Shown here: positions 1,863 to 53,022 of the stretch, piece after piece | How the letters are laid out: the number at the start of each line of letters is the position of its first letter | Position numbering within the stretch: position 1 is the stretch's first letter | Assembly (NCBI GenBank): GCA_020851325.1 | Contig: JADZCY010000212.1 | Coordinates: forward strand, 8,619 to 72,618 | DNA length: 64,000 nt | Direction: 5' to 3' | Source: Acidobacteriota bacterium | GTDB taxonomy: Bacteria > Acidobacteriota > Vicinamibacteria > Vicinamibacterales > UBA2999 | Program-made: the position numbers and the translations under genes | Notes under the pieces: generated by a model | The model's database searches: none | What the model was told of the DNA's origin: nothing | The model's input: the letters and a program-made list of their open reading frames with translations, nothing else

Positions 1863-3008
1863 TTATAGCGGAGGTTTCGCCGCGCACGCCGGATAACAGC
1901 CGAGCACCCGGACGAACTGCGTCGCCCCGCTCAAGCGGGTCAGGGCGCCCTGCATGGCGGGCGTCGACAGGTGCCCTTCGACGTCGGCGTAGAACACGTA
2001 TTCCCACGCCACCCCGGCCCGCGGACGTGATTCCAGCTTGCACAGGTTGACACCCTCGTCGGCCAGGATGTTCAGGCAGCGGACCAGCGCCCCGCGCTCG
2101 TGCCGGGTGCCGAACACCAGCGAGACCTTGGCGTCGACGAGCGGATCGCAGGCGTCCGGCGCGCTGGCGATGACGACAAACCGGGTCAGATTCATCGGCT
2201 GGTTGGCAATCTGCCGCTTCAACACGTGCAGGCCAAAGCGCACGCCGGCTTCTTCGCTGGCGATCGCCGCATGGCCCGGCCGCGCCTCGCGCGCCACCCG
2301 TTCGGCCGCCAGCGCCGTGTTTGGCGCCACCTCGGGGTCCACGCCGGGCAGTTCCGCCAGGAACTCGCTGCACTGCGCCAGCGCCTGCGGGTGCGAGTGC
2401 ACGTGCGTGAGGTCAGCGAGACCGACGCCGGCCGGCGCCAGCAGGCAGTGCTCGATCACCAGCACCTCCTCGCCGACGATCGACAGGCTGAGCCTGAAGA
2501 GCAAGTCGTACACATCGTGCACCGATCCCGCGGTGCTGTTCTCGATCGGCAGTACGGCTCGCTCCACATCGCCGTTCTGCACCGCTTCGAGCACCTCGCG
2601 GAACGATCGATACGCCTTGAGTGTCACCGGACGACGACTCACGCCGAAGTGCTGGCGCGCGGCCTGGAATCCGTACGCGCCTTCCGTGCCCTGATATCCC
2701 ACCACCAGCGGCGCCTCCGTCACCGGTGGATCGTTCAGCCATTCCTGCTGCCGGCGAACGGAGTCGTCGAGGATGGCGCGATACAAACGCCGCACGAGCA
2801 CGGGATCGAGTCCGACGCGCTCGCCGAACTCGGTACGGTGCGCCAGGATCGCCTGTTCCCGCGCCTCATCACGCAGCGGCTGCTCCGCCCCGCTCTTGGC
2901 GGCGGTGATGTCGCGCGCCAGGCGGGCGCGCTCGCCAAGCGCGCTCAGGATCACCTTGTCGATGTCGTCGAGCGAACGTCGCAGGTCGGCCAGATCTCGC
3001 ACGGTCAT
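1863..3008 (-). CDS. pheA: bifunctional chorismate mutase / prephenate dehydratase (P-protein)
   Basis: Chorismate mutase helix region ([26 protein letters not shown]), prephenate dehydratase ([16 protein letters not shown]...TRFVVI), and a C-terminal ACT-like region ([34 protein letters not shown]). GGAGGA lies 6 nt upstream of the ATG at 3008. Confidence 0.9.
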
Positions 3009-3022
3009 ACGCTTTCCTCCCC

Positions 3023-3066
3023 AAAAAGAAAAAGCCGCCACCCCAGCGACGTGCTGGGGCGGCGGC
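3023..3066 (-). terminator. intrinsic terminator hairpin 2, abutting the pheA RBS (candidate attenuator terminator)
   Basis: Reverse strand reads GCCGCCGCCCCAGC-acgtc-GCTGGGGTGGCGGC, a 14-bp stem with one G.U, followed by TTTTTCTTTTT. The pheA SD GGGGAGGA follows immediately. Confidence 0.6.
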
Positions 3067-3102
3067 GTGTCGTCCGCGGCGTTGAAACTCAGCGCCGGGC
3101 GG

Positions 3103-3165
3103 TTACACCGTCACCCTTCCCGCAAAAAAGAACACCGCGGCGGCAAACACCGCGGTGCATCGCAT
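3103..3165 (-). CDS. candidate Phe-rich leader peptide (20 aa, MRCTAVFAAAVFFFAGRVTV)
   Basis: ATG at 3165 lies 5 nt after the sucD stop; stop is TAA at 3103-3105. 4 of 20 codons are Phe, including a TTC-TTT-TTT run. It sits between sucD and pheA and spans hairpin 1. This is the tail of track ORF 3103..3522. Confidence 0.35.
   Translation of the reverse strand: MRCTAVFAAAVFFFAGRVTV
3123..3158 (-). terminator. intrinsic terminator-like hairpin 1 (sucCD terminator and/or pause hairpin of the pheA leader)
   Basis: Reverse strand reads CACCGCGG-tgtttgccg-CCGCGGTG followed by TTCTTTTTTG. Confidence 0.5.
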
Positions 3166-3170
3166 CGTCG

Positions 3171-4045
3171 TCACTTCTTCATCGCCTCGATGAGCGTGTC
3201 GCCCATGTCCGCGGGGCTCTTCACGACCTTGACGCCGGCCGCGGTGAGCGCCGACATCTTCTCGGCCGCCGTGCCCTTGCCGCCGGCGATGATCGCGCCG
3301 GCGTGGCCCATGCGGCGTCCCGGCGGCGCCGTCTGTCCGGCGATGAACGCGACGATCGGCTTGGTGAAGTGATCCTTGATCCACGCCGCGGCTTCTTCCT
3401 CGGCCGAGCCGCCGATCTCGCCGATCATGATCACCGCGTCGGTGTCCGGATCGTTCTGGAACAAGCCGAGCGCGTCGATGTGCGTGGTGCCGATCAGCGG
3501 GTCGCCGCCGATGCCGATGCACGTCGACTGGCCAAGGCCGCGCCGCGTCAACTGATCGATCGCCTCGTAGGTGAGCGTGCCGCTCTTCGAGACGATGCCG
3601 ATGCGGCCTTCCTTGCAGATGTTCGCCGGGATGATGCCGGCCTTGCCCTTGCCGGGCGAGATGAGCCCGGGGCAGTTCGGTCCAATCAGCCGCGTGTTCG
3701 GGCAGTCCTTCAGGAATGTCATCGCCCGCAGCATGTCGACCACCGGAATGCCTTCGGTGATGCAGACCACGAGCGCGATGCCGGCGTCGCCCGCTTCCAT
3801 GATGGCGTCGGCCGCGAACGGCGGCGGGACGAAGATCACCGAGGCGTTGGCGCCGGTCTGCTTCACCGCTTCGGCCACGGTATTGAACACCGGCCAGCCC
3901 TCGTGCGTGGTGCCGCCCTTGCCGGGCGTCACGCCGCCGACGACGTTGGTGTGATACGCCGCGGCCGCCTTGGCGTGGAAGGTGCCCTCACGTCCGGTGA
4001 GTCCCTGGACGATGAGGCGCGTGTTCTTGTCGAGCAGGATGGCCA

Positions 4046-4046
<1 letters not shown>
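3171..4046 (-). CDS. sucD: succinate--CoA ligase subunit alpha
   Basis: [31 protein letters not shown]...[17 protein letters not shown] (phosphohistidine loop). Confidence 0.95.
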
Positions 4047-5215
<1,169 letters not shown>

Positions 5216-5494
5216 ATGTAAGGGATGTTGTGAATGCGAACCGCGCGGGATCATAGCACGCGGCCTGCAGCCAGCCGGACCATGTGCCGTTCCGGCACAG
5301 TGCGACAATTCCGTACGCACAGGGAAAGTCGTGGCAAGTCTTGCAGTTAGCGGACTTTGTGCGACCCCATGGCCCGAAACGGCACAGGACGGCACGCCCG
5401 GGCACATCCGCCATCGCCTGACCTAACTCGTTTAATTGAAACGACTTACCATCTATCGACGAGGTGGCATGTCGCATGCTAGGCATGAGCATCA

Positions 5495-7999
5495 ATGGCA
5501 GGTTCTCCCGCCCCCCGGGGCGCGACAACGGGACCGTGGGTACTCGACGTCTACGTGACCATCGTGGTGGCCGCGGGCGTCGGCCTGGTCGCGTACGGCC
5601 TGCCGCTCGCCTCGTTCAACGAGCCCATCCTGTTCGTGGCGCTGCTGCTGGGCTCGATGAGCCTGGCGGTGATGAAGATCCACCTGCCGTTGTCGAGCGG
5701 CCAGGCGACGCTGTCGATGTCCTACTTCACGGACTTCCTCAGCCTCGTGCTGCTCGGGCCGCACGAAGCGATGCTGGTGGCCGGCGCCAGCGCCGCGACG
5801 CAGTCCCTGACGATGAAGAGGGGCCGGTATTCGCTGAAGAAGACGCTCTTCAGCAGCGCCACCCTGATCATCACCATCCAGTCCGCCGGCTTCGTCACCG
5901 ACCAGATTGGCGGCTTCGACCTCTACGCCTCGTTCGCCCAGTTGGCCAAGCCGGCCGCGCTCGGCGCCGCCACCTTCTTCCTGAGTAACAGCTTCCTCGT
6001 CGCCTCGGCCGTCTCGCTGACGCGTGGGGAATCGGTGATTCGCACCTGGCGCCAGGACTTCCTGTGGGCCGGTCCCGCCTGCTTCGTCGCCGCCGGCGCG
6101 GCCACGTTTGCCGCCGCCGTCATGGCGACGCAGGAAGTGTGGCTGGTGCTCTTCGCCGCCGCGCTGCTCGGCCTCACCTTCCACAGTTACCGGGTCTACC
6201 TGGGCCGCGTGTCGGAACACCAGGAGCACGCGCGCACGGTGTCGCGCCTGCACCTCGCCACCGTCGAAGCGCTGGCGCGCGCCATCGACGCCCGCGACCA
6301 GACGATCGACCCCGAGTCGGGCATCACCGAAAACCACATCCGCCGCGTCGAGGCGCGGGCGGCCGCGCTCGGTGAAGCCGCCGGGATGACGCCGGACGAA
6401 GTGGAAGGGCTGAAAGTGGCGGCGCTGCTGCACGACATCGGCAAGCTGGCCGTGCCCGAACACATCCTCACCAAGCCCGGCCGACTGACACCGTCGGAAT
6501 TCGACTACGTGCGCCTGCACCCGACCGTCGGCGCCAACATCATCAAGGCCGTGCCGTTCCCCTACCCGGTGGCGCCGTACATCCAGAGCCATCACGAACG
6601 CTGGGATGGCGGCGGTTATCCCGACGGCCTGAAGGGCGCGGAGATCCCGATGGGCGCGCGCGTCCTCGCCGTCGTCGACTACTACGACGCGCTCACCGCT
6701 CATCGTCCGTATCACCGCGCGATGGCGCGCGATGAGGCGATGGAGACGCTGCAGCGCGAAGCCGGCAAGGCCCTGGATCCGCGTCTGGTGGAGTTGTTCC
6801 TGGACGTGCTGCCGGCCACCGAGTCGCAGGAAGAACAGGAAGCGGCTCGCCAGCGTGTGCGGACCGACGTGTCGCAGAACCGCGCCGGCGCGCCGGCCAC
6901 CGGCTTCTCGGTCACCGGCACCGACGCCGCACTGCCCGCCGACGACGTGTATCACAGCATTTCGCGGGCGACGCAGGAGGTGCGGACGCTGTACGACATC
7001 GCACAGGCGCTGGGCACGCGCCTCAGCGTGGACGACACGATGGGTCTGCTGACCTCCAAGCTGAACCGCCTCGTGCCGGCCTCCTGCTGGGCGCTTTATG
7101 TGCCCGACGGCGCCCGTGTCACGCTGCAATGCCGCTTTGCTTCAGGGCTGTCGGCCGACGCCGTCGAGGGCTTGTTCGTGCCGATGGGCGAAGGGGCCAC
7201 CGGCTGGGCCGCGCGCCATGCCACCCCCGCGGTGAACGCGCGGGCCGCCAGCGACTTCGAATCGGCCGGGGCCAAGAGTGCCGGCAGTCATTTCCAGTCC
7301 GCCCTTGCCTTCCCGCTGGTGGAGAACGATGAACTGGTCGGCATCCTCACCGCCTACCACGTCGATCACCAGCCCTACACCGATGCGCACGTGCGCCTGC
7401 TCGAGCGCCTCGGCCTGCAGGCGGCGTCGGTGATCTCGAATTCGATCCAGTTCGAGGGCATGCGTGCGGCGTCGTTGACCGACGCCCTCACGGACCTGCC
7501 CAACTCGCGGGCGCTGGTTGGCCACGTCGATCAGCGGCTGGCGTCCACCGCCGAGCAGCCGGTGCCAAGCGCGCTCATCATGATCGACCTCGACGATTTC
7601 AAGTCGATCAACGACGTGCACGGCCACCAGGTGGGCGACCTCGCCCTGCAGACGCTGGCGACGACGCTGCGCCGGCAGATCCGCGCCGCGGACTTCTGCG
7701 CCCGTTACGGCGGCGACGAGTTCGTGATTGCGCTGGCGTGCCAGGACCGCGCCGAGGCGACGCGCCGCGCCCAGGACCTGCAGCGGGCGGTGGCCCGGCA
7801 GCAGGTGCCGGCGCCCGATGGCAGCCTGCTGACGCTGAGCATCAGCGTCGGCGTGGCGATGAGCGGCGAAGACGGCGACACCTTCGAGGCCCTGCTCGAC
7901 GCCGCCGACCGCCGGATGTACGAAGACAAGTTCTCGCGCAAGCCGCTGCGGCACCGCGCCACCACGGCGTCGGTGCCCCTGGCTCAATCCACGCCGTGA
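5495..7999 (+). CDS. membrane-anchored HD-GYP phosphodiesterase / GAF / GGDEF diguanylate cyclase hybrid
   Basis: Multi-TM N-terminus; HD motif (LLHDIGKLAVPEHIL); HHERWDGGGYPDGL (HD-GYP); GAF-like middle region; C-terminal RYGGDEFVIA with RAAD five residues upstream (I-site RxxD). Start codon uncertain. Confidence 0.85.
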   Translation: MAGSPAPRGATTGPWVLDVYVTIVVAAGVGLVAYGLPLASFNEPILFVALLLGSMSLAVMKIHLPLSSGQATLSMSYFTDFLSLVLLGPHEAMLVAGASAATQSLTMKRGRYSLKKTLFSSATLIITIQSAGFVTDQIGGFDLYASFAQLAKPAALGAATFFLSNSFLVASAVSLTRGESVIRTWRQDFLWAGPACFVAAGAATFAAAVMATQEVWLVLFAAALLGLTFHSYRVYLGRVSEHQEHARTVSRLHLATVEALARAIDARDQTIDPESGITENHIRRVEARAAALGEAAGMTPDEVEGLKVAALLHDIGKLAVPEHILTKPGRLTPSEFDYVRLHPTVGANIIKAVPFPYPVAPYIQSHHERWDGGGYPDGLKGAEIPMGARVLAVVDYYDALTAHRPYHRAMARDEAMETLQREAGKALDPRLVELFLDVLPATESQEEQEAARQRVRTDVSQNRAGAPATGFSVTGTDAALPADDVYHSISRATQEVRTLYDIAQALGTRLSVDDTMGLLTSKLNRLVPASCWALYVPDGARVTLQCRFASGLSADAVEGLFVPMGEGATGWAARHATPAVNARAASDFESAGAKSAGSHFQSALAFPLVENDELVGILTAYHVDHQPYTDAHVRLLERLGLQAASVISNSIQFEGMRAASLTDALTDLPNSRALVGHVDQRLASTAEQPVPSALIMIDLDDFKSINDVHGHQVGDLALQTLATTLRRQIRAADFCARYGGDEFVIALACQDRAEATRRAQDLQRAVARQQVPAPDGSLLTLSISVGVAMSGEDGDTFEALLDAADRRMYEDKFSRKPLRHRATTASVPLAQSTP

Positions 8000-8042
8000 G
8001 GCCCAGCCGAAATGAAATAGAATCCGGGGTTGGGCATTCCTC

Positions 8043-8723
8043 ATGCGACTTCTGCAAGCATCCGCTTCCTCAATCGGGTCGAAGATCGTCATCGCGCTCA
8101 CCGGACTCGGCCTCGCCGGGTTCCTCATCACGCACCTGGCCGGCAACCTGCTCTTTCTCGTCGGTCCTGAGGCGTTCAACGAGTACAGCCACAAACTGAT
8201 CAGCAACCCGCTCATCTATGCGGCGGAGATCGGTCTGCTCGGCATCTTTTTCCTTCACATCGCCAAGACGGTGGCCGCGGTCATCGGCAACAAGGCGGCA
8301 CGGCCGACCGGCTATGCGGTGCGCCGCTGGGCGAAGACCAAGAACCCGAAGAGCCGCAAGAGCGTGGCGTCATCCAGCATGATCGCCACCGGCACCATCG
8401 TCGCGCTGTTCGTGGTGACGCACCTGGCGACCTTCAAGTTCGGCACGTTCTACCAAACGCCGGACGGCATGCGCGACCTGTATCGCCTGCAGCTCGAGAT
8501 CTTCAGCAACCCGGCCTACGTGCTCTTCTATCTGGTGGCGATGGGCATCCTGTTTTTCCACCTGTGGCACGGCCTGGTGAGCGCGATGCAGTCGCTCGGG
8601 CTGGACCACCCGCAGTGGACGCCGCGCGTGATGACGGCCGGGCGGGTGCTCGCCGTCGTGCTGGCGGCCGGCTTCTTCATCATTCCGATCTACACGTTCG
8701 TCCTCTCGCGGAGCGGCCAATGA
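8043..8723 (+). CDS. sdhC: succinate dehydrogenase / fumarate reductase cytochrome b subunit (b558-type)
   Basis: Hydrophobic 226-aa protein ([27 protein letters not shown]...) immediately upstream of sdhA, with an ATGA junction. Confidence 0.8.
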
Positions 8724-10633
8724 CGCTCGACTCGAAGATTCCGGGCGGGCCGATCACCGAGAAGTGGGATCGCCGCAAGTTCGAAAACAAGCTCGTCAAC
8801 CCCGCCAATCGCCGCAAGTACGAGGTGATCATCGTCGGCACCGGCCTGGCCGGGGCGTCGGCGGCGGCCGCGCTCGGCGAACTGGGCTACAAGGTCAAGC
8901 TGTTCGGCATCCACGACAGCCCGCGGCGCGCCCACAGCATTGCCGCGCAGGGCGGCATCAACGCCGCGAAGAACTATCGCAACGACGGCGACAGCGTCTA
9001 TCGCCTGTTCTACGACACGATCAAGGGCGGCGACTACCGCGCCCGCGAGGCCAACGTCTATCGCCTGGCGGAACTGTCGGTGCAGATCATCGACCAGTGC
9101 GTGGCGCAGGGCGTGCCGTTCGCGCGTGAGTATGGCGGCCTGCTCGACAACCGCTCGTTCGGCGGCGCGCAGGTGTCGCGGACGTTCTACGCCCGCGGCC
9201 AGACGGGGCAGCAGCTGCTGCTCGGCGCCTATCAGTCGATGATGCGCCAGGTGGACGCCGGCACCGTGGACCTCTATCCGCGGCGCGAGATGCTCGACCT
9301 CGTCCTCGTCGGCGGTCAGGCGCGCGGCATGATCACGCGCAATCTCGTCACCGGCGAACTCGAGACGCACACCGGCCACACGGTACTGCTGTGCACGGGC
9401 GGTTACGGCACGGTCTTCTATCTGTCGACCAACGCCATCAACTCGAACGTCACGGCGGCGTGGCGCGCGCACAAGCGCGGCGCCTACTTCGCCAATCCCT
9501 GCTTCACGCAGATCCACCCGACGTGCATCCCGGTCAGCGGCGATCATCAGTCGAAACTGACGCTGATGTCCGAGAGCCTGCGTAACGACGGCCGCGTCTG
9601 GGTGCCGAAGAACCAGGGCGACAAGCGTCCGCCGTCACAGATTCCGGATGCCGACCGCGACTACTACCTGGAGCGGCGCTACCCGAGCTTCGGCAACCTG
9701 GTGCCGCGCGACGTCGCGTCGCGTGCCGCCAAGGCGGTGTGCGACGAAGGCCGCGGCGTTGGTGAAACCGGCCTGTCGGTGTATCTGGACTTCGCCGACG
9801 CGATCCGCCGCCTCGGCGCGGACACCATCAAGGGGCGTTACGGCAACCTGTTCGACATGTACAAGCGCATCACCGACGAGGACCCGTATCAGGTCCCGAT
9901 GCGCATCTACCCCGCCGTCCACTACACGATGGGCGGGCTGTGGGTGGACTACAACCTCCAGTCGACGATCCCCGGCCTCTTCGTGCTGGGCGAAGCCAAC
10001 TTCTCGGACCACGGCGCCAACCGCCTCGGCGCCAGCGCGCTGATGCAGGGCCTGGCCGACGGCTACTTCGTCGCGCCGTACACGGTGGCCAACTACCTGG
10101 GCGGCACCGCGCTGCCTGGCGTGTCCGGCGATCACGACGCCTTCAAGGAAGCGCGGGCGGCATCGCAGGAGCGCATCGACAAGGTGCTGCAGGTGAAGGG
10201 CACGCGGACCATCCGCGACTTCCACCAGGCCATCGGCGCCATCTGCTGGGATCACATCGGCATGGCGCGCAACGAAGCCGGACTGGCCGGCGCGCTCACC
10301 CAGATCCGCGCTCTTCGCGACGAGTTCTGGCAGAACGTCATCGTCCCCGGCGACAAGAACAATCTGAACCCGGCGCTCGACTACGCCGGGCGCGTCGCCG
10401 ACTACATGGAGTTCGCCGAACTGCTGGCCCTCGACGCGCTCGAGCGGCGGGAGTCGTGCGGCGGCCACTTCCGGGAAGAATTCCAGACACCCGACGGCGA
10501 GGCCCTGCGCAAAGACGACGACTTCTCGTATGTCGCGGCGTGGGAGTTCCAGGGTGTCGGGGCGCGGCCGGCGCTGCACAAGGAAGACCTGGTCTTCGAC
10601 GAAGTGCACCCGTCGCAGCGCAGCTACAAGTAA
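8720..10633 (+). CDS. sdhA: succinate dehydrogenase flavoprotein subunit
   Basis: [10 protein letters not shown]...[21 protein letters not shown] (FAD fold), [31 protein letters not shown] at 8720 confirmed. Confidence 0.95.
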
Positions 10634-10641
10634 GGACGCAT

Positions 10642-11391
10642 ATGGCCATGACCGTCACCCTGAAAGTCTGGCGCCAGGCCGCCCCGTCGGCGGAGGGACG
10701 CTTCGAGACCTACAAGACCGATCACGCGCATCCGGACATGTCGTTCCTCGAGATGCTGGACGTGGTGAACGAGGAACTGATCAAGAGCGGCAAGGACCCG
10801 ATCGCGTTCGACTCGGACTGCCGTGAAGGCATCTGCGGCAGTTGCGGCCTGGTCATCGACGGCATCCCGCACGGGCCCGACAAGGGCGCGACGACCTGCC
10901 AGGTGCACATGCGGCGCTTCCGGAATGGCGACACCATCACCATCGAGCCGTTCCGCGCCAAGGCGTTTCCGGTGTTGAAGGATCTGGTCGTCGATCGCGG
11001 CGCCTTCGACCGCATCATCGCCGCCGGCGGTTATGTGTCGATGAACGTCGGCGGCGCGCAGGACGGCAACTGCCTGCCGATTCCGAAGGACATCGCCGAC
11101 CTGGCGATGGACAACGCGCAGTGCATCGGCTGCGGCGCCTGTGTGGCCGCCTGTAAGAACGCCGCCGCGCATCTCTTCACCTCGGCGAAGATCACGCACC
11201 TCGGCCTGCTGCCGCAGGGCGAGCCCGAACAGGCCCGCCGCGTCGTCCGCATGGTGGAACAGATGGACGCCGAAGGCTTCGGCGCCTGCTCGAACGAGGG
11301 TGAGTGCGAAGCGGTGTGCCCGAAGGAGATTTCCATCGCCAGCATCGCCCGCATGAACCGCGACTACCTGAAAGCCGCGGTCGGCAAGTAG
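10642..11391 (+). CDS. sdhB: succinate dehydrogenase iron-sulfur subunit
   Basis: [12 protein letters not shown].... Cluster motifs [21 protein letters not shown], and [12 protein letters not shown]. Confidence 0.9.
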
Positions 11392-43682: not shown

Positions 43683-43750
43683 CGGGGTTGCCACTATAGC
43701 ATTCCGGCCGGAATGGCCGAGGTTGGAGGCGAAAGTGTGACGCAACACCG

Positions 43751-43759
43751 TGCTATACT
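43751..43759 (+). promoter_or_regulatory. candidate extended -10 (TGCTATACT) upstream of FN3 paralog 1
   Basis: TGnTATACT lies about 80 nt upstream of the ATG at 43840. No good -35. Pattern match only. Confidence 0.25.
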
Positions 43760-43839
43760 CCGACTCGGTTTTGCGCCCGCGGGGCCTCCCAGCCCCCTCG
43801 GATTCCAAACCCCAAACCTCTCCCCCAACGCTTGAAAGG

Positions 43840-45207
43840 ATGTTTGCGATGTTGGTGTGGGCAAAAACGGTGCGGGCGTGGACGGCATCCGGGTTGATGG
43901 CGCTGCTGCTCGGCCTCGGCGCGGTGGTTCTCCTGGCGGCGCCCGTGGCTCCCGCGCTCAACGCGCCGGCGGTATCGGGCCAGCGCGTCACGTTGTCGTG
44001 GAACGCGGTGCCGGGCGCCCTGGGCTATCGCCTCTCGGTGGGCGTCAACCCGAGCGCACCGGCATACGCGCAGAACGTCGGCCCGGCTACTTCCTACACA
44101 TTCGATTCGCCGTTCACCGGCACCGGCTGGGTGGCCGTGCAGGCGTACGACGCCTCGGGCCTCAGCCCGTACTCGAACGTCGTGCAACTGGTAATCGGCG
44201 GCGCGGCCGGCACACCCGCTGCCCCGCAGGATCTGCAGTACGGCATCAGCGGCCGGAACGTCGTGCTGTCGTGGCGCGCCGGCATGGGCGGCTCGGCGCC
44301 GCTCGGCGTGCTGCTCGAAGCCGGCACCAGTCCCGGGGCCGCCAACCTCGGCAGCATTCCGCTGCCCATCAGCACGCAGACCACGGTGCCGAACGTCCCG
44401 AACGGCACCTACTACGCGCGTGTCTACGCGGTGAACGCGTCGGGCCGCAGCGCACCGTCGAACGAAGTGCGCATCGACATGCCCGGTGGTGGCGGTCCCT
44501 GCGTGCCGCCGCCGGCGTCGTCACTCGCGGCGTCGGTGAATGGCCAGACCGTGGGCTTTGCCTGGTCGCCGGTGGTGGGTGTGGCCGGCTACAACCTCGA
44601 AGTGTCGCTGAGCCCGACATCGCCCGCCGTGCTGTCGCAGACGTTCGGCCCAGGCACGACAAGCTTTGCCTATCCCAATGCGCCGGCCGGCACCTACTAC
44701 GCCCGCGTTGTCACCGGCGCCGCCTGCGGCGCGCAGACGGGATCGAACGTGGTGCCGCTGACGGTGACGGGGCCGCCGCCGGGAACCGGTCCGCGCACGC
44801 CCAACCCGCCGCCGGGACAGCGCCTGCCGCTGCCGAACATGTCGAGCGTCGTCGAGGCGATCGCGCGTGCCTATCCGAACGAGCTGCGGAACTCGTGCCG
44901 CGAGCACGGCGGCAACAACGCCTGGATGTTCCGGCTGGTGCAGGAACTGCGTCGTCACGACACGCGGTGGGGGTTGAACTGGAAACGCGGCAACCGCGGC
45001 GACATGTCGCAGGATGCCATCGACTACAACTTCGGTTCAACGGCGGATGAAGACACGACGAATGTCTACATCATCGACGTCATCGGCGGGCACTGCGGAG
45101 GCAACCCCGGGCCGACGTGGATCGACCAGACGCAGGCCACGGCTGACAAGGGTGAGATTGGTCGCTGGACGCTGCAGCCGTACATCGCGGCGGGCGGACA
45201 ACCCTAG
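43840..45207 (+). CDS. secreted protein: 3 FN3-like modules + unplaced conserved C-terminal domain (paralog 1)
   Basis: Signal/TM N-terminus. Three modules of about 95 aa (..LSW..V.GA.GY.L......GTYYARV.A.N.SG.S..SN.V). Linker GPRTPNPPPGQRLPLP, then C-domain SCREHGGNNAWMF...RWGLNWKRGNRGDMSQD...IGGHCGGNP. AAGGA SD before the ATG. Confidence 0.75.
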   Translation: MFAMLVWAKTVRAWTASGLMALLLGLGAVVLLAAPVAPALNAPAVSGQRVTLSWNAVPGALGYRLSVGVNPSAPAYAQNVGPATSYTFDSPFTGTGWVAVQAYDASGLSPYSNVVQLVIGGAAGTPAAPQDLQYGISGRNVVLSWRAGMGGSAPLGVLLEAGTSPGAANLGSIPLPISTQTTVPNVPNGTYYARVYAVNASGRSAPSNEVRIDMPGGGGPCVPPPASSLAASVNGQTVGFAWSPVVGVAGYNLEVSLSPTSPAVLSQTFGPGTTSFAYPNAPAGTYYARVVTGAACGAQTGSNVVPLTVTGPPPGTGPRTPNPPPGQRLPLPNMSSVVEAIARAYPNELRNSCREHGGNNAWMFRLVQELRRHDTRWGLNWKRGNRGDMSQDAIDYNFGSTADEDTTNVYIIDVIGGHCGGNPGPTWIDQTQATADKGEIGRWTLQPYIAAGGQP

Positions 45208-45411: not shown

Positions 45412-46770
45412 ATGAAGAGACTGCAGTTCCCCCTGACTCACGTTGCCGCGGCCGTGCTGGCGGCGGTCGTGGGTGCGTCGGTGCTGACGCACGCGCAGGT
45501 GACCCCGCCGACGCTGACCGCGTCGGCCGTGGGTGCGACCGTAAACTTCTCGTGGACCCCGGTGGCCGACGCCACCGAATATGTGCTGCAGGCCGGCGTT
45601 GCGCCCGGCAACTACATCCTGACGGTCCCGGTGGGACTGACGACGGCAACGTCAGCGCAGGCACCCGCCGTCGGCACCTACTATGCGCGCGTCGGCGCCC
45701 GGACGCCGAGCGGCGATGTGTGGTCCGCCGGCATTCCCATCACGGTGACCGCGATGGTCGCGCCTCCGACGGCGCCCACGGCACTCACCACGTATCTGAA
45801 CGGACGGTCCGCGCTGATTACCTGGACTCCGGGCGTCGGCGGGGGCGCTCCGAGCGGCTATATCCTGCACGCCGGCACCACCCCGGGCGGCACGGAGCAC
45901 GGCGTGTTTCCGCTGGGCGCGACGCCGCAGTTGGCCGTGCCGAACCTCGGCGCCGGCGACTACCACCTGCGTCTCTTCGCGGTGAACGCCGGCGGTGTGA
46001 GCCCGGCGTCGAACGACACGCTGCTCAGCATGCCCCAGGGCGGCGGCTGCTCGGTGCCGCCGGCGCGCGACTTCACGTTCTTCTCATTCGGCCGCTTCGC
46101 GCAGTTCACGTGGCTGCCGGTGCCCGGCGCGTCGGGATACCGCATTGACGTGGCGACGTCGCCCGGCGGCGCGCCCGCAGCGTCGCAGACGTTCGCGGCG
46201 AACGCCGGGAACTGGAGCATTACCGGCGCTCCGCTCGGCACCTTCCACGCCAAACTGACTACCGCGGTGTCGTGCGGTCAGCAGGCGACGAGCGCGGAGA
46301 AGCCGATCGTCCTCGACGGTGCACCGCCACCGGGACCGCGCGCGCCCAATCCGGCACCCGGGCAGCGGCTGCCGTTCCCGTCCTGGGGCGAGGCCGTGGT
46401 CGAACAGCTCGCCGCCGAACGGCGGGACCTGCTCTTCCAGTCGTGCACCGAGCACGGCGGCAACAACCGCTTCATGTTCGAACTCGTCCGCCGTTTGCGC
46501 CAGCGTGACAACCGCTTCGGCCTGAATTGGAAGCGCGGCAACTACGGCGACCTGTCGCAGGACATCGTCAACTACAACTTCGGCAGCGAGCCGGACGAGG
46601 GCACCGAGAACGTCTACATCGTCGACATCATCGGCGGCCACTGCGGCTCGAATCCGTCGGCGGCGTGGATCAATCAAACCGACGCGACTCGCGCGGCGGG
46701 TACTAAAGGCGTGTGGACGCTGCTCCCGTACATGAACGCGGGGTTCCCGATCGTTTCCGATCAGCAGTAA
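45412..46770 (+). CDS. secreted protein: 3 FN3-like modules + same C-terminal domain (paralog 2)
   Basis: Signal peptide (..VLTHA-QV). Linker GPRAPNPAPGQRLPFP. C-domain SCTEHGGNNRFMF...RFGLNWKRGNYGDLSQD...IGGHCGSNP. Confidence 0.75.
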   Translation: MKRLQFPLTHVAAAVLAAVVGASVLTHAQVTPPTLTASAVGATVNFSWTPVADATEYVLQAGVAPGNYILTVPVGLTTATSAQAPAVGTYYARVGARTPSGDVWSAGIPITVTAMVAPPTAPTALTTYLNGRSALITWTPGVGGGAPSGYILHAGTTPGGTEHGVFPLGATPQLAVPNLGAGDYHLRLFAVNAGGVSPASNDTLLSMPQGGGCSVPPARDFTFFSFGRFAQFTWLPVPGASGYRIDVATSPGGAPAASQTFAANAGNWSITGAPLGTFHAKLTTAVSCGQQATSAEKPIVLDGAPPPGPRAPNPAPGQRLPFPSWGEAVVEQLAAERRDLLFQSCTEHGGNNRFMFELVRRLRQRDNRFGLNWKRGNYGDLSQDIVNYNFGSEPDEGTENVYIVDIIGGHCGSNPSAAWINQTDATRAAGTKGVWTLLPYMNAGFPIVSDQQ

Positions 46771-46876
46771 CCCGCCGCTGAACGTGCGAGATTTTATGGG
46801 GCCACCTCAACCGGGTGGCCCCATAATTGTCGGGGTTGCGAGGTCGCCGTGCCGGCGCCTCCTGGAGCCCGATCGC

Positions 46877-48211
46877 ATGAAGAAGACTTTGCTCGCGGCG
46901 CTGCTTGGCGCTGCCGCCCTCCTCGTCAGTCCGTCCTTCGCCCTCGCGCAGTCCGCGCCTGTCCTCACCGTCGATGTGTCCGGCAACAACGTCGGCGCGT
47001 CATGGACCGCTGTTGCCGGCTCCACCGGCTACCGCGTCGACGTCGGCACCTACTCGGCCGGCACCAACGTCATCTCCGCCACCATCAACGGACTCTCCGC
47101 CGGCGGCGCGCTCGGCGTCGGCACCTACTTCATTCGCGTCTACCCGGTCGCCGGCTCGACGCTCGGTCCGGTGTCCAACGAGGTGCAGTTCAACGTTGGC
47201 ACGCCGCGGCCGGGCGCGCCCATCGCGCCCGCCGCCACAATGGACGGCTCGACGCTGGTGTTCACGTGGGCGCCGCCGACCACGGGTGGCGCGCCGACGA
47301 CCTACGTCCTGCAGGCCGGGACGCAGTTCGACTGGGCCAACCTGGCGACGCTGAACGTCGGCAATGTCGCGACCTACTCGGTCCCGAACGTCGCCGGACT
47401 GTTGCCCGCGGGCACCTACTTCGCGCGCGTGATGGCCGCCAACGGCACCGGCGCCAGCGATCCGTCGGAGGAGATTGTGTTCACGATTGGCAATCTCCCC
47501 GGCGTGCCGACGCCGAATGCGCCGACCGTGAGCGGGAACAACGTCACGCTGTCGTGGAATCCGCCCGCCGGCGGCCTGCCTGTCACGAACTACCGCATCG
47601 AAGGTGCCTACGGCGACTACCGCAACCTCGGCACCGCCGCAACACTCGACGGCAGCGCGACGTCGTACTCGGCCAATCTGCCCAACGGCTCGTACTACTG
47701 GCGCGTGCGCGCCTTCAACGGCACCACGCCCGGCGCCGTGTTCGGCACCGCGTCGTTTGCCGTCGGGCCAACCGATCCGCCGCCGGCTGGTCCGCGCACG
47801 CCCAACCCGGCCACCGGCCGCCGGCTGCCCAAGCCTTCGTACGGCGAAAGCGTCGCCCGTGCCATGGCCACGGCGTATCCCTTCGATCTCGCCAACTCGT
47901 GCCACGAAACCGGCGGCACGAACCACTGGATGTTCAAGGTGATTCGTGAACTGCGCCACATCGACACGCGCTGGATTCTCAACTGGAAGCGCGGCAACAC
48001 CGGCGACCTCTCGCAGGACATCGCCAACTACAACTACGGATCGCTGCCGGACGAAGGCACGATTGACGTCTATCTGTGGGACATCATTGGCGGACACTGC
48101 GGCGGGCGTCCGACCTGGAACTGGTCGGACGTCACCGACGCCACGGCGCGCGGCAACACCATCGGCCGCGGCACGCTGCGCCCCTACATCGCCGCCGGCT
48201 ACACGCCGTAG
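46877..48211 (+). CDS. secreted protein: 3 FN3-like modules + same C-terminal domain (paralog 3)
   Basis: MKKTLLAALLGAAALLVSPSFALA-QS. Linker GPRTPNPATGRRLPKP. C-domain SCHETGGTNHWMF...RWILNWKRGNTGDLSQD...IGGHCGGRP. Confidence 0.75.
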   Translation: MKKTLLAALLGAAALLVSPSFALAQSAPVLTVDVSGNNVGASWTAVAGSTGYRVDVGTYSAGTNVISATINGLSAGGALGVGTYFIRVYPVAGSTLGPVSNEVQFNVGTPRPGAPIAPAATMDGSTLVFTWAPPTTGGAPTTYVLQAGTQFDWANLATLNVGNVATYSVPNVAGLLPAGTYFARVMAANGTGASDPSEEIVFTIGNLPGVPTPNAPTVSGNNVTLSWNPPAGGLPVTNYRIEGAYGDYRNLGTAATLDGSATSYSANLPNGSYYWRVRAFNGTTPGAVFGTASFAVGPTDPPPAGPRTPNPATGRRLPKPSYGESVARAMATAYPFDLANSCHETGGTNHWMFKVIRELRHIDTRWILNWKRGNTGDLSQDIANYNYGSLPDEGTIDVYLWDIIGGHCGGRPTWNWSDVTDATARGNTIGRGTLRPYIAAGYTP

Positions 48212-48451: not shown

Positions 48452-50440
48452 ATGCCAATTCGCCTGCTCGTCGCGCTGCTCTTCACCCTGCTCGTCCAGA
48501 CGCCGCAGGCTCAGCAACCGCCGTCCGCCGTGGCCGACCTTGCCGACGCCTCTGCCGTGGTCGTGACGGGTGCCGTCGAGGCGATGGCGGCTGGCGAGGA
48601 TCAGGGCGCCATTTACACCTACGTCACCGTCCGCGTGGACGAGGTGCTGAAGGGCGCCGTCCCGGCGCGCACGGTGGTGGTGAAACAACTCGGCGGCACG
48701 CTGCCGCAGCTGGGCCTCTACATTGCCGATCAGGCGCGCTTTGCCGCCGGCGAGTCGGTACTGCTCTTCCTCAACAGCCGCCCGCGCGATGGTTCGCTCT
48801 ACACGGTCGGCCTCGGCCGCGGCAAGTGGACGGTGCTGCCCGACATCCGCGGCGGCGGGCTGGCCGCGATCCAAGGCTCGCTCGCAACGGGGCTTGACGA
48901 TACGACACGCGCCGCGATCGCCGCGTCGCGCCCGCACGCCGCGAACTTCGTCGCCATCCCGGCCGACGCGCCGACGCCGGACAGCCCCGGCTACACGTTC
49001 ATCCCCGGCAGCGAAGGCGGTCCCGCGCGCTGGCATCAGGCCGACGATGGCGTGAGCGTGCCGGTGGACTTCCAGACGATTCCCGGCGGCTTGCCCGGCG
49101 ACGCCAGCGCTGCACTCAATCGCGCCATCGGCGCCTGGAACGGCGTCGGCTCGCAACTGCAGCTCGCCCGCGCGCAGACCGGCCCGCACACCTGCCCATC
49201 CACCGGATTCAGCGGCAACGGACGCATCGGCCTTTACTGGAACGACCCCTGCGGCGAAATTCCCGACGGCGACTCCGCCACCTTCGGCATGGGCGGCGGC
49301 TTCTTCACGCCCGGCTTCCAGAAGACGATCAACGGCGTCACGTTCAACGCGTTCGTGCAGGGCCTGGCGATCCTGAACAACAGCGGACCGCACCTCGCCA
49401 CGGCGGCGTGTCTGGAAGACGCGTTGACGCACGTGCTCGGTCACGCGGTGGGCCTCGGGCACTCCGGCGACGGCAACGCCGTGATGTATACGACGCTGCG
49501 CTCCAGTTGCACTGGCGGATCCACCGGGCTCGGCACCGACGATGTGAACGGGCTGGGTGCGATTTATCCGGACATCCCGAGTGGCGGCCTGCCACCGCAG
49601 GCGCCAACGGCCATCACCAATACCGTGTCGCTCGACTCGGTAACGCTGTCGTGGACGCCGGCCACCAGCGGCGGGCCGGCGCAGAGCTACATCCTCGAGG
49701 CCGGGACGTCGGAGCAGCAGCCGAACAACATCGCGGTGCTGCCGCTGCCGAACGCCAACACATCGACGGTGGTCGGCGCGGTGCCGCCCGGCGTCTACTA
49801 CGTCCGCGTTCGCGCTCGCAACGTGCTTGGCACGAGCGCGCTGTCGCCGGCCACGGTGGTGACCGTCGGCCCGTGTCAGGCGCCCGCCGCACCGACAGGA
49901 CTGGCTTACACGAACGCCGACGGCTTTGTCGGCATCACGTGGAACCCGCCGGCCTCCGGCGTCACGCAGGGCTACCTGCTGTCGGCTGGGATGTCGCCCG
50001 GTGCATCCGACGCGCTGGTGCTGCCGCTCGGTCCGACGCCGGCCTTCGCGGGCACGGCGCCCCCCGGTGATTACTACGTGCGTGTCGCGGCGCGAAACTC
50101 CTGCGCCACGGGTCCCGCGTCGTCGCCCGATCTCGTCGTCCAGGTACGCGCCTGCACCGCGCCGCCGCTCGCGCCGGCGAATCTCTCGTTCACGCGCGCC
50201 GGCAACACCGTGACGCTCAACTGGACCGGGCCCACATCCGGTAACCTGCCGTCCCGGTATCAGATTCACGCCGGCAGCGGGCCTGGTGCCTCCAACATCC
50301 TCGTCTACGAAACGACCAACCCGGCCACGTCGTTCCAGGCCTTTGCACCCGCCGGCACCTATTACGTCCGCATCGTCAGCCGCAACAACTGCGGCTCGAG
50401 CAGTACCGCGTCCAACGAAGTGCAGGTGGTGGTGCCATGA
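48452..50440 (+). CDS. secreted matrixin (M10)-like protein with Glu-to-Val in the zinc motif, plus 3 FN3-like modules
   Basis: Signal peptide. Motif THVLGHAVGLGHSGDGNAVMY fits HExxHxxGxxH-S-x5-A-x-M-Y except that the catalytic E is V (codon GTG at 49433-49435). Three C-terminal modules have the same flavour as in the paralogs. Confidence 0.75.
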   Translation: MPIRLLVALLFTLLVQTPQAQQPPSAVADLADASAVVVTGAVEAMAAGEDQGAIYTYVTVRVDEVLKGAVPARTVVVKQLGGTLPQLGLYIADQARFAAGESVLLFLNSRPRDGSLYTVGLGRGKWTVLPDIRGGGLAAIQGSLATGLDDTTRAAIAASRPHAANFVAIPADAPTPDSPGYTFIPGSEGGPARWHQADDGVSVPVDFQTIPGGLPGDASAALNRAIGAWNGVGSQLQLARAQTGPHTCPSTGFSGNGRIGLYWNDPCGEIPDGDSATFGMGGGFFTPGFQKTINGVTFNAFVQGLAILNNSGPHLATAACLEDALTHVLGHAVGLGHSGDGNAVMYTTLRSSCTGGSTGLGTDDVNGLGAIYPDIPSGGLPPQAPTAITNTVSLDSVTLSWTPATSGGPAQSYILEAGTSEQQPNNIAVLPLPNANTSTVVGAVPPGVYYVRVRARNVLGTSALSPATVVTVGPCQAPAAPTGLAYTNADGFVGITWNPPASGVTQGYLLSAGMSPGASDALVLPLGPTPAFAGTAPPGDYYVRVAARNSCATGPASSPDLVVQVRACTAPPLAPANLSFTRAGNTVTLNWTGPTSGNLPSRYQIHAGSGPGASNILVYETTNPATSFQAFAPAGTYYVRIVSRNNCGSSSTASNEVQVVVP

Positions 50441-51741
50441 GCCGAGCGCGCGTGCGGTGGTCGTTGTCGCTGGTCGCGCTGGTGATGCCGCTGGCGGCGG
50501 CCATGCCCGCCGTGCTGGCGGGTGATCAATCGGCGCCTGCTCCCACTGCTGTCGCCGCTGACGCGCCGACCTACGTGCGCGACATCGCGCCGCTCCTGAA
50601 CGAACACTGCGTCGAATGTCATCGCCCCGGCCAGATGGCGCCGATGTCGTTTCTCACCTACGAGGCCACGCGTCCGTGGGCGCGCGCCATCCAGCGTCAG
50701 GTGGTCGGCCGGACGATGCCGCCATGGGGTGCGGATCCGGCAGTGGGCCACTTCGCGAACGATCCGAGTCTGTCCGCCGACGCCATTTCGACGATCACGC
50801 GCTGGGTGGACGCCGGAGCGCCGCGCGGTGAGGGCGCGCCGCCCGCGCCGCCGGCCGCACAGTCCGACGAATGGCGCATCGGCACGCCGGATCTGATCCT
50901 GTCGATGGACGAGTCCTTCCCCATTCCCGCGACGGGGATCATCGAATACCAGTACTTCAAGGTGCCGACGCACTTGAAGGAAGACCGCTGGGTGACCGCC
51001 GTGGAGATTCGTCCCGGCGAGCCGCGGGCCGTGCATCACCTCCGCATCTTCGCGCAAGGGCCTGAACGCGACACGCGACCCGTCCCGACCGGCCGCGAGA
51101 TGTATTGCATCGACGAAGTGTGTGGCAATCTCGAACCGCCGCTGATTGGCTGGGGACCGAACCTCGCCTCCGTCGCGGTCGGCACGCGGCCCGAAGTGTA
51201 CGAGCTCGGCTCCGGCAAGCTGCTGAAGGCCGGCTCGGTGCTGACGCTGCACACGCACTACACCTCGTTTGGCGAAGCCAGCACGGACCGCACGCGCGTC
51301 GGTCTCCGCTTCGCGAAGACGCCGCCGAAGGTGCAGTTGAAAACGGTGTCGATGGCGCAGGAACAGTTCGCGATTCCGCCGGGCGATGCCAATCATGTCG
51401 TGAACGCCTCGCTCGAGTTCCGCGAACCGGTGCAGCTGCACAGTCTCGGCCCGCACGCGCACCTGCGTGGCCGCAGCTGGCGCTTCTGGCTGCAGACGCC
51501 GGACGGCACGCGCACCGAACTCCTCTCCGTCCCGCGCTTCGACTTCGACTGGCAGTTGCACTACGTGTTCAAGGATCCGATTGCGGTTCCGGCCGGCTCG
51601 AAGCTCGAAGGCACGGCGACGTTCGACAACTCGCCGGGGAACGTCAACAACCCCGACGCCACCGCCACCGTGCGCTGGGGCCCGCTGACGGTGGACGAGA
51701 TGATGTTCGCGTCGGTCGTCTACAGCGCCGACAAGAAATAG
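50437..51741 (+). CDS. heme-c domain fused to PHM/DBH-like copper type II monooxygenase fold
   Basis: Signal peptide. CVECH (50608-50622) followed by MPPW. His/Met pattern is HH(200-201), HTH(272-274), HAH(340-342), EMM(421-423), with spacing close to the PHM CuH/CuM ligands. ATGA overlap with the upstream gene. Confidence 0.7.
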   Translation: MSRARVRWSLSLVALVMPLAAAMPAVLAGDQSAPAPTAVAADAPTYVRDIAPLLNEHCVECHRPGQMAPMSFLTYEATRPWARAIQRQVVGRTMPPWGADPAVGHFANDPSLSADAISTITRWVDAGAPRGEGAPPAPPAAQSDEWRIGTPDLILSMDESFPIPATGIIEYQYFKVPTHLKEDRWVTAVEIRPGEPRAVHHLRIFAQGPERDTRPVPTGREMYCIDEVCGNLEPPLIGWGPNLASVAVGTRPEVYELGSGKLLKAGSVLTLHTHYTSFGEASTDRTRVGLRFAKTPPKVQLKTVSMAQEQFAIPPGDANHVVNASLEFREPVQLHSLGPHAHLRGRSWRFWLQTPDGTRTELLSVPRFDFDWQLHYVFKDPIAVPAGSKLEGTATFDNSPGNVNNPDATATVRWGPLTVDEMMFASVVYSADKK

Positions 51742-51744
51742 CGG

Positions 51745-51903
51745 GACACAGGAAACCGCGAAGACACGAAGGGGCACGACCCTTCGACGTCGCTCAGGGC
51801 AAGCGAACGCGAAGGACGCAAAGGTTGCAGAGGGGCCAGACCAGTCTTTGTGCCCTTCGCGCCCTTCGCGGTCAGCAGAGGATCTTCGTGCCATCGTGGT
51901 TTC
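51745..51903 (+). repeat. CACGAAGG-family element with conserved core, copy A (upstream of the SDR gene)
   Basis: Core ACCCTTCGACGTCGCTCAGGGCAAGCG (51779-51805), GCCCTTCGCGCCCTTCGCGG, and CTTCGTGCCATCGTGGTTTC. Confidence 0.75.
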
Positions 51904-51921
51904 ATTGCCGGAGGCCACACC

Positions 51922-52833
51922 ATGCCGACTGTTGTTCGCGCCCACCGTTGGTTCTGGCTCAGCACTGTCGTCGTTGTCGCCGTCGCCGCGGGTTTGCGGT
52001 GGACGTCGGCGCAGGCACCAGCCGACAATGCCGACGTGAAGGGCAAGATCGTTTTGATTACCGGGTCCACCGATGGACTCGGGCGTGAAGTGGCACGGCG
52101 CACGGCGGCGCGTGGCGCGCATGTCATCGTCCACGGACGCAATCAGGAACGCGGCAAGGCCGTGGTGGATGAAATCACGAAGGACGGCGCCGGCACGGCG
52201 CGGTTCTATGCGGCCGACTTCGCTCTGCTGGATGACGTGCGGACGTTTGCCGCCGCCATCCGGAGGGACTACGACCGCATCGACGTGCTGGTGAACAACG
52301 CCGGCGTGCTGCTGCGCGATCGGCAGGTGAGCCGCGATGGGCACGAGCTGCAGTTCGCGGTGAACTATCTCGCCGGCTTCCTGCTCACGCGCACGCTGCT
52401 GCCGATCATCGGCGTCAACTCTCCGGCGCGCATCATCAACGTCTCGTCACTCGCGCAGTCGCCGATCGACTTCGACGACGTGATGCTCGAGCGGCCCGGC
52501 CGCGCCGCGCAGGGCTATGGACAGAGCAAGCTGGCGCAGATCCTCTTCACGATGGATCTCGCCACGGAACTCAAAGATCGCCCCATCATCGTCACCGCTC
52601 TCCATCCGGCGACGATGATGGATACGACGATGGTGCGGCAGTCGGGCATGCCGTCGCGTTCCACCGTTGATGAGGGCGCCACGGCGCTGATGCAGCAGAT
52701 TGCCGGCGCGACGGTCGAGAGCGGCCGCTTCTACAACGGCCTGAACCCCGCGCGTCCGAACGCACAGGCCGAAGACGTCACCGCCCGCGCGAAGCTGCGC
52801 GAACTGAGCGTGAAGCTGACGGGAGTGAAATAG
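51922..52833 (+). CDS. short-chain dehydrogenase/reductase with N-terminal TM/signal segment
   Basis: KGKIVLITGSTDGLGREVA (TGxxxGxG), NNAG, and YGQSKLA (YxxxK). GGAGG 7 nt upstream of the ATG at 51922. Confidence 0.85.
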   Translation: MPTVVRAHRWFWLSTVVVVAVAAGLRWTSAQAPADNADVKGKIVLITGSTDGLGREVARRTAARGAHVIVHGRNQERGKAVVDEITKDGAGTARFYAADFALLDDVRTFAAAIRRDYDRIDVLVNNAGVLLRDRQVSRDGHELQFAVNYLAGFLLTRTLLPIIGVNSPARIINVSSLAQSPIDFDDVMLERPGRAAQGYGQSKLAQILFTMDLATELKDRPIIVTALHPATMMDTTMVRQSGMPSRSTVDEGATALMQQIAGATVESGRFYNGLNPARPNAQAEDVTARAKLRELSVKLTGVK

Positions 52834-52854: not shown

Positions 52855-53003
52855 GACACCACGAAGACCCGAAGGATCACGACCCTTCGACGTCACTCAG
52901 GGCAAGCGGCCGCGAAGCACACAAAGGAGAATGCTCTCTTTGTTTTCGTGCCCTTCGCGCCCTTCGCGGACGACGAAGGCTCGCTTCGTGCCTTCGTGGT
53001 TTC
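52855..53003 (+). repeat. CACGAAGG-family element with conserved core, copy B (downstream of the SDR gene)
   Basis: Core ACCCTTCGACGTCACTCAGGGCAAGCG (52882-52908), GCCCTTCGCGCCCTTCGCGG, and CTTCGTGCCTTCGTGGTTTC. Same orientation as copy A. Confidence 0.75.
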
Positions 53004-53022
53004 CTGTGATACCCGACGCCGC

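Follow-up and report, generated by a model that had tools for sequence, protein, structure and literature searches.

The gene at positions 50437-51741 of a 64,000-nucleotide stretch of forward-strand DNA from a soil bacterium of the Acidobacteriota (assembly GCA_020851325.1, contig JADZCY010000212.1, positions 8,619 to 72,618; the whole stretch is termed the window) encodes a protein in which a mono-heme cytochrome c-like module precedes a core with the predicted fold and the six aligned copper ligands of peptidylglycine α-hydroxylating monooxygenase (PHM) and dopamine β-hydroxylase (DBH). The preferred reading, given a probability of roughly 0.6, is that the protein is a Sec-exported periplasmic redox enzyme with two kinds of cofactor, a heme-fed hydroxylase that differs from PHM in its substrate. 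Following Sec export and heme ligation of the cytochrome module, the c-type module, covalently tethered to a non-coupled dicopper core of the PHM/DBH type, would take single electrons from the periplasmic pool of c-type electron-transfer proteins and pass them to the CuH site (His-200, His-201, and His-274) and onward to the CuM site (His-340, His-342, and Met-422). There O2 would be bound and a C-H bond hydroxylated in a substrate other than a glycine-extended peptide, with the fused cytochrome doing the job that ascorbate does in the animal enzymes, on which the production of amidated hormones and of noradrenaline depends.

The AlphaFold2 model of the protein (mean predicted local distance difference test score (pLDDT) 83.9, predicted template modeling score 0.80) supports a two-domain β-sandwich (double jelly-roll) fold of the PHM/DBH type for the core, which takes up the C-terminal ~290 amino acids. 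The top 31 Foldseek matches of the model in the PDB are all PHM or human DBH, with E values between 4e-13 and 3e-9, a probability of 1.00, and ~300 aligned columns, and the next matches are unrelated jelly-roll proteins with E values of 1.8e-5 or worse. The same relationship is recovered from sequence profiles when the family is aligned by hhalign with the rat PHM core, a reference verified against the PDB in which 76 is added to the sequence position to give the PAM residue number. The full-length family profile gives a probability of 93% and an E value of 3.5e-7, and the core-only profile gives 94.8% and 4.9e-8. All six ligands lie in register with their PHM counterparts (Table 1) within the common motifs VHH, LQVHY, HxH, and DEM, which supports a complete and conserved set of three His at CuH and two His plus Met at CuM. 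A search of the PDB sequences by hmmsearch with the core-only profile returns PHM chains as the sole matches (E 0.015), and PHM was not found among these sequences by hmmsearch with the full-length profile or by phmmer with the protein itself, for which phmmer gave no PDB sequence match.

A PHM-like layout of copper ligands had been proposed in the original prediction, made from the DNA letters and their translation, on the basis of the pairs HH (200/201), HxH (272/274), HxH (340/342), and MM (422/423). Each pair is present on direct reading (HTH 272-274 at 51250-51258 and MM 422/423 at 51700-51705), and the proposed layout is borne out by the fold match and by the alignment of six of these residues with rat PHM, all of them invariant in an alignment of 35 sequences that extends down to 39% identity. 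The ligand spacings of 73, 66, and 80 residues are near the 64, 70, and 70 of PHM. Two of the proposed candidates fall away. Position 272 is Gln in 86 members of a second set of 108 family open reading frames, matching Gln-170 in the LQVHY motif of PHM, and the column of Met-423 is variable across the family; neither His-272 nor Met-423 is conserved, and therefore neither is taken to be a copper ligand.

The pattern of conservation follows the predicted cofactor sites. Of the 434 alignment columns 58 are invariant in the 35-sequence set, and they include 6 of the 13 His of the protein (His-62, His-200, His-201, His-274, His-340, and His-342), 3 of its 11 Met (Met-70, Met-94, and Met-422), and 2 of its 4 Cys (Cys-58 and Cys-61, the heme motif pair). 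A model with one heme site, CuH, and CuM accounts for every invariant His, Met, and Cys, and the probability that the five PHM-aligned His would all land by chance within the six invariant His is 0.005, which indicates from the alignment that the motif pattern is not a chance one. The full heme and copper signature is kept in 97 of the 108 open reading frames. Retention of six copper ligands across the family, invariant at 39-70% identity, would be unexpected without selection for metal binding and leaves very little room for a reading in which the jelly-roll of the PHM-like part serves in binding or structure, not in catalysis, and the protein simply carries electrons as a cytochrome. That reading draws on the loss of the copper ligands in a few paralogs, on database entries that name homologs "cytochrome c family protein," and on the frequent occurrence of double jelly-roll domains as carbohydrate-binding modules (PMC8812541). 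More than 3,500 full-length homologs of the protein were found, under names such as "mono/diheme cytochrome c family protein," "hypothetical," and "thiol-disulfide isomerase," and one is named "copper type II ascorbate-dependent monooxygenase-like."

Comparison with PHM, the catalytic core of PAM (PDB codes 1PHM, 1SDW, and 5WM0; Foldseek E about 1e-12), shows the same two-domain β-sandwich, the same His3/His2Met register, and the same local motifs at a sequence identity of about 17-20%. PHM uses soluble ascorbate, whereas the protein described here is bacterial, predicted to be periplasmic, and fused at its N terminus to a c-type cytochrome. Arg-240, Asn-316, and Tyr-318, which in PHM hold the substrate by its glycine carboxylate and peptide backbone, are replaced by Gly-338, Phe-424, and Ser-426 in variable columns. 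Since these anchoring residues are absent, the protein is not a PHM orthologue, and its substrate is predicted not to be a glycine-extended peptide. The family has motifs that are shared by the protein and its relatives and are not found in PHM (HxHxRG, DFxWQxxY, and DNSxxNxxNP), and the family-specific invariant residues of the CuM domain (Arg-344, D369-F-x-W-Q373, Tyr-376, N398-S-x-x-N-x-x-N-P406, and Glu-421) probably shape a pocket different from that of PHM. The disulfide pattern of PHM is also absent, as the only non-heme Cys residues are Cys-224 and Cys-229, neither of which is conserved. The DBH, tyramine β-hydroxylase, and MOXD1 group (PDB code 4ZEL) has the same core fold (Foldseek E 1e-12, query-normalized TM score 0.48) and likewise an additional N-terminal domain. 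In DBH this is a DOMON β-sandwich, whereas the predicted module here is helical, with a CxxCH motif for one heme c. DOMON domains in other proteins bind heme b. The protein has no counterpart of the DBH dimerization domain.

The module preceding the core very likely binds heme c, an assignment that rests on motif and Pfam evidence. In the model the CxxCH motif ends helix 46-57, the MPPW motif follows helix 75-90, and a C-terminal helix spans residues 114-125, an order of helices that in the predicted structure is that of a class I c-type cytochrome. The presence of CVECH with MPPW downstream, as described in the original prediction, is confirmed, and both motifs are invariant in the family. 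Both Met-94, within MPPW, and Met-70 are invariant and lie downstream of CxxCH, and either is a candidate distal heme ligand. The Pfam family Cytochrome_CBB3 (PF13442) matches the protein with an E value of 7.9e-4 and is matched in 26 of the 35 aligned members. Relatives exceed the cytochrome c cut-offs, scoring 29.5-37.1 bits for PF13442 and 22.0-22.3 bits (cut-off 21.3) for PF00034. The weak sequence matches in the PDB are all c-type cytochromes, namely the heme domain of hydrazine synthase α, 4RLR, and cytochromes c6. Attachment of c-type heme needs export, and the N terminus, MSRARVRWSLSLVALVMPLAAAMPAVLAG followed by DQ after the apparent cleavage point, resembles a Sec signal peptide by inspection, as had been predicted, and has no lipobox Cys. 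On the basis of this N terminus the protein is predicted to be exported to the periplasm.

The association of the cytochrome module with the copper core extends far beyond the window. The core-only profile matches 14,467 of 1.84 billion representatives clustered at 50% identity at E ≤ 1e-3, and 3,289 of these at E ≤ 1e-30. Among the best 150 core-profile representatives, to which all architecture counts refer, CxxCH is present in 127, most of the others being short and probably fragments. A length of 400-500 amino acids, corresponding to the cytochrome c module plus core as in the window protein, is found in 37, a length of 560-720 in 66, and a length above 720 in 20. In most of the sampled long forms an AhpC/TSA-type thioredoxin-fold module precedes the cytochrome, and some contain further modules (EF-hand, ankyrin, α/β-hydrolase, MBOAT, DUF3471, or a second complete unit). 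Every long form that was checked, two-unit proteins included, has exactly one CxxCH ~80-90 residues ahead of each core, and of the comparative arguments for a heme that serves the copper core this constant arrangement is the strongest. As judged by motif and profile, the cytochrome c module and core are conserved together in the representatives that match best, which strengthens what is otherwise a reasonable inference, already made in the original prediction, that the built-in cytochrome takes the place of ascorbate as electron donor. An analogy of mechanism, not of family membership, is offered by the cytochrome c-fused NirK enzymes and by the cytochrome domain of cellobiose dehydrogenase paired with LPMO, in which a heme domain stands in for a small-molecule reductant and feeds single electrons to an extracytoplasmic mononuclear copper center. 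NirK has cupredoxin T1/T2 sites and LPMO a histidine brace, and both folds and copper sites are unrelated to those of the window protein.

Relatives of ~600 amino acids, named "thiol-disulfide isomerase" or "redoxin," contain the same cytochrome c plus core unit with the same ligands and differ from the window protein by the extra N-terminal thioredoxin-fold module; the minimal architecture, without this module, is that of the window protein. In the relatives examined for it (P0133, P0139, P0159, P0160, P0172, P0180, and P0239) the module carries a monothiol C-P-x-[S/T/A] motif, P0139 alone having CPLC. A second conserved Cys (G-C-[I/L]-I) is placed ~125 residues after this motif, directly before the cytochrome module, and the two together point to an unusual thiol chemistry that may be coupled to the heme-copper unit.

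Several results weigh against the heme-fed hydroxylase reading. The original prediction looked to domain profiles for confirmation, and this came from relatives more than from the protein itself. Cu2_monoox_C (PF03712) is matched in 31 of the 35 aligned members, with relatives reaching 24.7-32 bits and several past the cut-off of 23, whereas the window protein falls below the gathering cut-off (E 0.024, 14.6 bits). Its PF13442 score of 20.1 bits is similarly below the cut-off of 27. Cu2_monooxygen (PF01082) is matched in 5 of the 35 and has no match in the protein itself, its cut-off of 30 was reached by no relative scanned, and no NCBIfam family was found for the protein. For the cytochrome module, residues 40-140 modeled on their own (pLDDT 74.8) gave no significant neighbor in a Foldseek search (best E 2.6), and hhalign to the verified Pseudomonas cytochrome c551 is weak (11% probability) and does not place the Met in register. 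About 8 of the 108 family open reading frames are paralogs that have lost the copper ligands with the heme motif intact, so copper chemistry is not shared by all family members. Finally, the AhpC/TSA-like module in many relatives may indicate peroxide or thiol chemistry instead of hydroxylation.

This last point bears on an alternative function, that of a copper oxidoreductase fed by its cytochrome c, in which no organic substrate is hydroxylated. O2, H2O2, superoxide, or a nitrogen oxide would instead be reduced in the periplasm, with the PHM-like core as electron sink, in detoxification or in a respiratory side branch. Such a function would agree with the abundance of forms of 560-720 amino acids, most of those sampled having the peroxiredoxin-fold module upstream, with the tethered cytochrome c, a typical feature of reductases in the periplasm (cytochrome-fused NirK, for example), and with the lack of a conserved substrate-supplying or product-using neighbor at the 84 sampled loci (80 from one-genome-per-species GTDB contigs and four places for two close homologs). 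It is nevertheless considered unlikely. The combination of a His2Met CuM site with a His3 CuH site is the hallmark of O2-activating enzymes that abstract hydrogen atoms, and we know of no reductase with the PHM fold. The monothiol motif of the redoxin module is not a typical peroxidatic site, and the window protein has no such module. Tandem paralogs, which are the commonest neighbors of family members and form arrays of 2-6 diverged copies at 24 of the 84 loci, are more readily explained by diversification of substrates than by one reductase for a small molecule. The window has one family copy. Arrays of 4-6 paralogs are located at L011, L017, L031 (e.g. 2469-10726), L067, L078, and L082, in Blastocatellia, Bryobacterales, and other Acidobacteriota; in these arrays some proteins end in a DUF3471 domain, and in some the copper ligands are degenerate and the heme motif is intact.

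Table 1. Positions in the window of the gene for the heme-copper protein, its predicted sites, and its upstream neighbor
Feature	Positions	Strand	Basis
Whole gene: signal peptide, mono-heme cytochrome c module, and PHM/DBH-like dicopper core	50437..51741	+	434-residue open reading frame
ATGA start/stop overlap with the upstream matrixin-like open reading frame	50437..50440	+	Read in the sequence
Probable Sec signal peptide, residues 1-29, cleavage after VLA	50437..50523	+	Inspection; N terminus of low pLDDT and not conserved
Cytochrome c-like module, residues ~44-135	50566..50841	+	Helices 46-57, 75-90, and 114-125
CVECH heme c attachment motif (Cys-58, Cys-61, His-62)	50608..50622	+	35/35 in the alignment; CxxCH in 105/108 family open reading frames
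M94-P-P-W97, candidate distal Met heme ligand	50716..50727	+	Invariant; Met-70 the alternative
N-terminal β-sandwich (predicted CuH domain), residues ~150-295	50884..51321	+	Foldseek; Pfam Cu2_monooxygen in relatives; hhalign
His-200 and His-201, aligned with PHM CuH ligands His-107 and His-108	51034..51039	+	hhalign register "VHH"; invariant
His-274, aligned with PHM CuH ligand His-172	51256..51258	+	Family motif LQxHY, here LHTHY
C-terminal β-sandwich (predicted CuM domain), residues ~296-431	51322..51729	+	Pfam Cu2_monoox_C E 0.024; Foldseek
H340-A-H342, aligned with PHM CuM ligands His-242 and His-244	51454..51462	+	hhalign; invariant
Met-422, aligned with PHM CuM ligand Met-314 (DEM motif)	51700..51702	+	hhalign; invariant
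Upstream neighbor: secreted matrixin-like protein with three FN3 domains, 662 residues	48452..50440	+	Pfam Peptidase_M10 and fn3

The original prediction placed the gene in translational coupling with the matrixin-like gene directly upstream and proposed a fixed partnership with secreted FN3 proteins. The reading frame and the overlap of its ATG with the upstream TGA are indeed present in the sequence, and the neighborhood was compared by tblastn of the window neighbor proteins against the 84 loci and by sampling of additional close orthologs (L085/86, L087/88, and L089/90). The matrixin-like and FN3 genes were found in L001 and L073 only among the 84 loci, and both of these also share the GNAT, GT2, LolA, and secretin neighbors with the window. 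In L087/88 and L089/90 the ortholog of the heme-copper gene is preceded by an ortholog of the matrixin-like gene (58-60% identity). In L002-4 and L085/86, which hold equally close orthologs (64-66% identity), the matrixin-like and FN3 neighbors are absent and the gene sits between an unrelated 690-amino acid membrane protein and a ROK kinase; the neighbors are also absent from all 80 more distant loci. The association is a clade-restricted syntenic block of five closely related genomes (the window, L001, L073, L087/88, and L089/90) and not a property of the family. The ATGA overlap is confined to the window genome, the two genes being separated by 13 nucleotides in L001 and by 50 nucleotides in L073. 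Coupling as a conserved trait is not upheld, and neither is the fixed partnership.

A dedicated role for the enzyme, co-translated with the adjacent matrixin-like/FN3 proteins and hydroxylating them or peptides released by them, is improbable on this distribution. Peptides are the substrates of PHM itself, the overlap in the window spans 4 nucleotides, and the matrixin-like ortholog keeps its upstream position throughout the five genomes of the block, among them L089, in which insertion of a second reprolysin-FN3 gene and SurE has otherwise rearranged the block. Against these stand the absence of the pairing from equally close orthologs and distant loci, the sharing of GNAT, GT2, LolA, and secretin by the linked genomes, by which plain synteny of relatives explains the pairing, the non-conserved overlap, and the loss of the PHM peptide anchors described above. 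In addition, the matrixin-like protein has no catalytic Glu and so may yield no peptides. Its zinc motif (residues ~327-337) reads H-V-L-G-H-A-V-G-L-G-H and is followed by a Met-turn, with the Glu of HExxHxxGxxH replaced by Val; this position is Val or Leu in the L087 and L089 orthologs (motif H[V/L]xGHxxGxGH). The protein is probably a non-canonical or inactive metalloprotease with three FN3 domains.

De novo clustering of neighbors over the 84 loci revealed no widely conserved partner gene for the heme-copper protein. A gene for a protein with cytochrome c and a pyrroloquinoline quinone (PQQ) β-propeller, resembling a quinohemoprotein dehydrogenase, lies near family members at 16 of the 84 loci (e.g. 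L055 8167-9984) and within 2 kb of a family member in 7 of these 16. A heavy-metal-binding-domain (HMBD) protein, an amidohydrolase, and a VOC protein each recur near family members at 6 loci, and the HMBD protein is counted as copper context in favor of the heme-fed hydroxylase. The PQQ β-propeller and HMBD proteins could be partners in electron donation or copper handling. These frequent non-paralog neighbors are too sparse for a pathway to be assigned.

Further features were observed around the gene and its orthologs. Three tandem paralogous secreted FN3 proteins (43750-45207, 45412-46770, and 46784-48211; mutual identity 36-44%) share a C-terminal domain of ~130 amino acids with no Pfam match (…NSCxEHGGNNxWMFxLVxxLRxxDxRWGLNWKRGNxGDxSQD…IGGHCG…), and orthologs of the three were found in L001 and L073 only among the 84 loci. 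Downstream of the gene an element of ~150 nucleotides is present in two direct copies (51747-51908 and 52855-53008), 80-95% identical and the only two in the window, with 25-nucleotide terminal inverted repeats (CACAGGAAACCGCGAAGACACGAAG and CTTCGTGCCTTCGTGGTTTCCTGTG). The copies bracket an SDR gene (about 51850-52833). In the syntenic relatives L001, L073, and L087 no SDR gene separates the GNAT gene from the heme-copper gene, and for this reason the SDR gene looks like an insertion flanked by repeats of the miniature inverted-repeat transposable element or repetitive extragenic palindromic type. Downstream of the target ortholog, L002 (13369-17247) and L085 (7235-11196), which represent the other gene neighborhood described above, have paired large cytochrome proteins with PSCyt3/PSD domains, accompanied by an HXXSHH (DUF1552-type) partner and an ankyrin-repeat protein. 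Horizontal transfer was considered and rejected, as the GC content is uniform (0.65-0.71) across 42-58 kb of the window. No intrinsic terminator or σ70-like promoter was detected around the gene in a scan that is uninformative for Acidobacteriota.

Searches of the full-text literature turned up no account of a PHM/DBH homolog from bacteria or of a cytochrome c fusion, consistent with the view in the original prediction that bacterial members lack defined substrates. PHM and DBM are listed as eukaryote-only cuproproteins (PMC7435645), and the PHM family has been called widespread in eukaryotes (PMC8812541). The sequences are abundant in public databases and partly recognized by Pfam, and hence are not categorically new; their annotation as "cytochrome c," "hypothetical," or "thiol-disulfide isomerase" keeps the copper enzyme hidden. 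It is tentatively proposed, at slightly less than even odds, that proteins built on the cytochrome c plus PHM-like unit, some 14,500 clusters at 50% identity, make up a very large and wholly uncharacterized group of periplasmic dicopper monooxygenases in bacteria whose electrons would come from respiratory c-type cytochromes and not from ascorbate, and that the tandem expansion of the group in soil Acidobacteriota possibly serves the oxidation of diverse environmental substrates.

If this is true, the textbook view of PHM/DBH-type enzymes as eukaryotic would be overturned. To our knowledge PHM and DBH are the only well studied non-coupled dicopper monooxygenases, and the way in which electrons cross the roughly 11 Å of solvent that separates CuH from CuM has been an open question for a long time. 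A bacterial counterpart carrying a covalently tethered heme donor would be soluble and expressible in bacteria. Electron entry at CuH could be set off by light or by an electrode via the heme, and each transfer along the path of heme, CuH, and CuM followed by spectroscopy, in a self-contained system that needs no ascorbate. Both the architecture and the family size would surprise a specialist in copper enzymes, and the function is one that we infer. For the organisms themselves, family size and the tandem arrays in abundant soil phyla suggest an unrecognized periplasmic oxidative chemistry in the turnover of carbon or nitrogen in soil.

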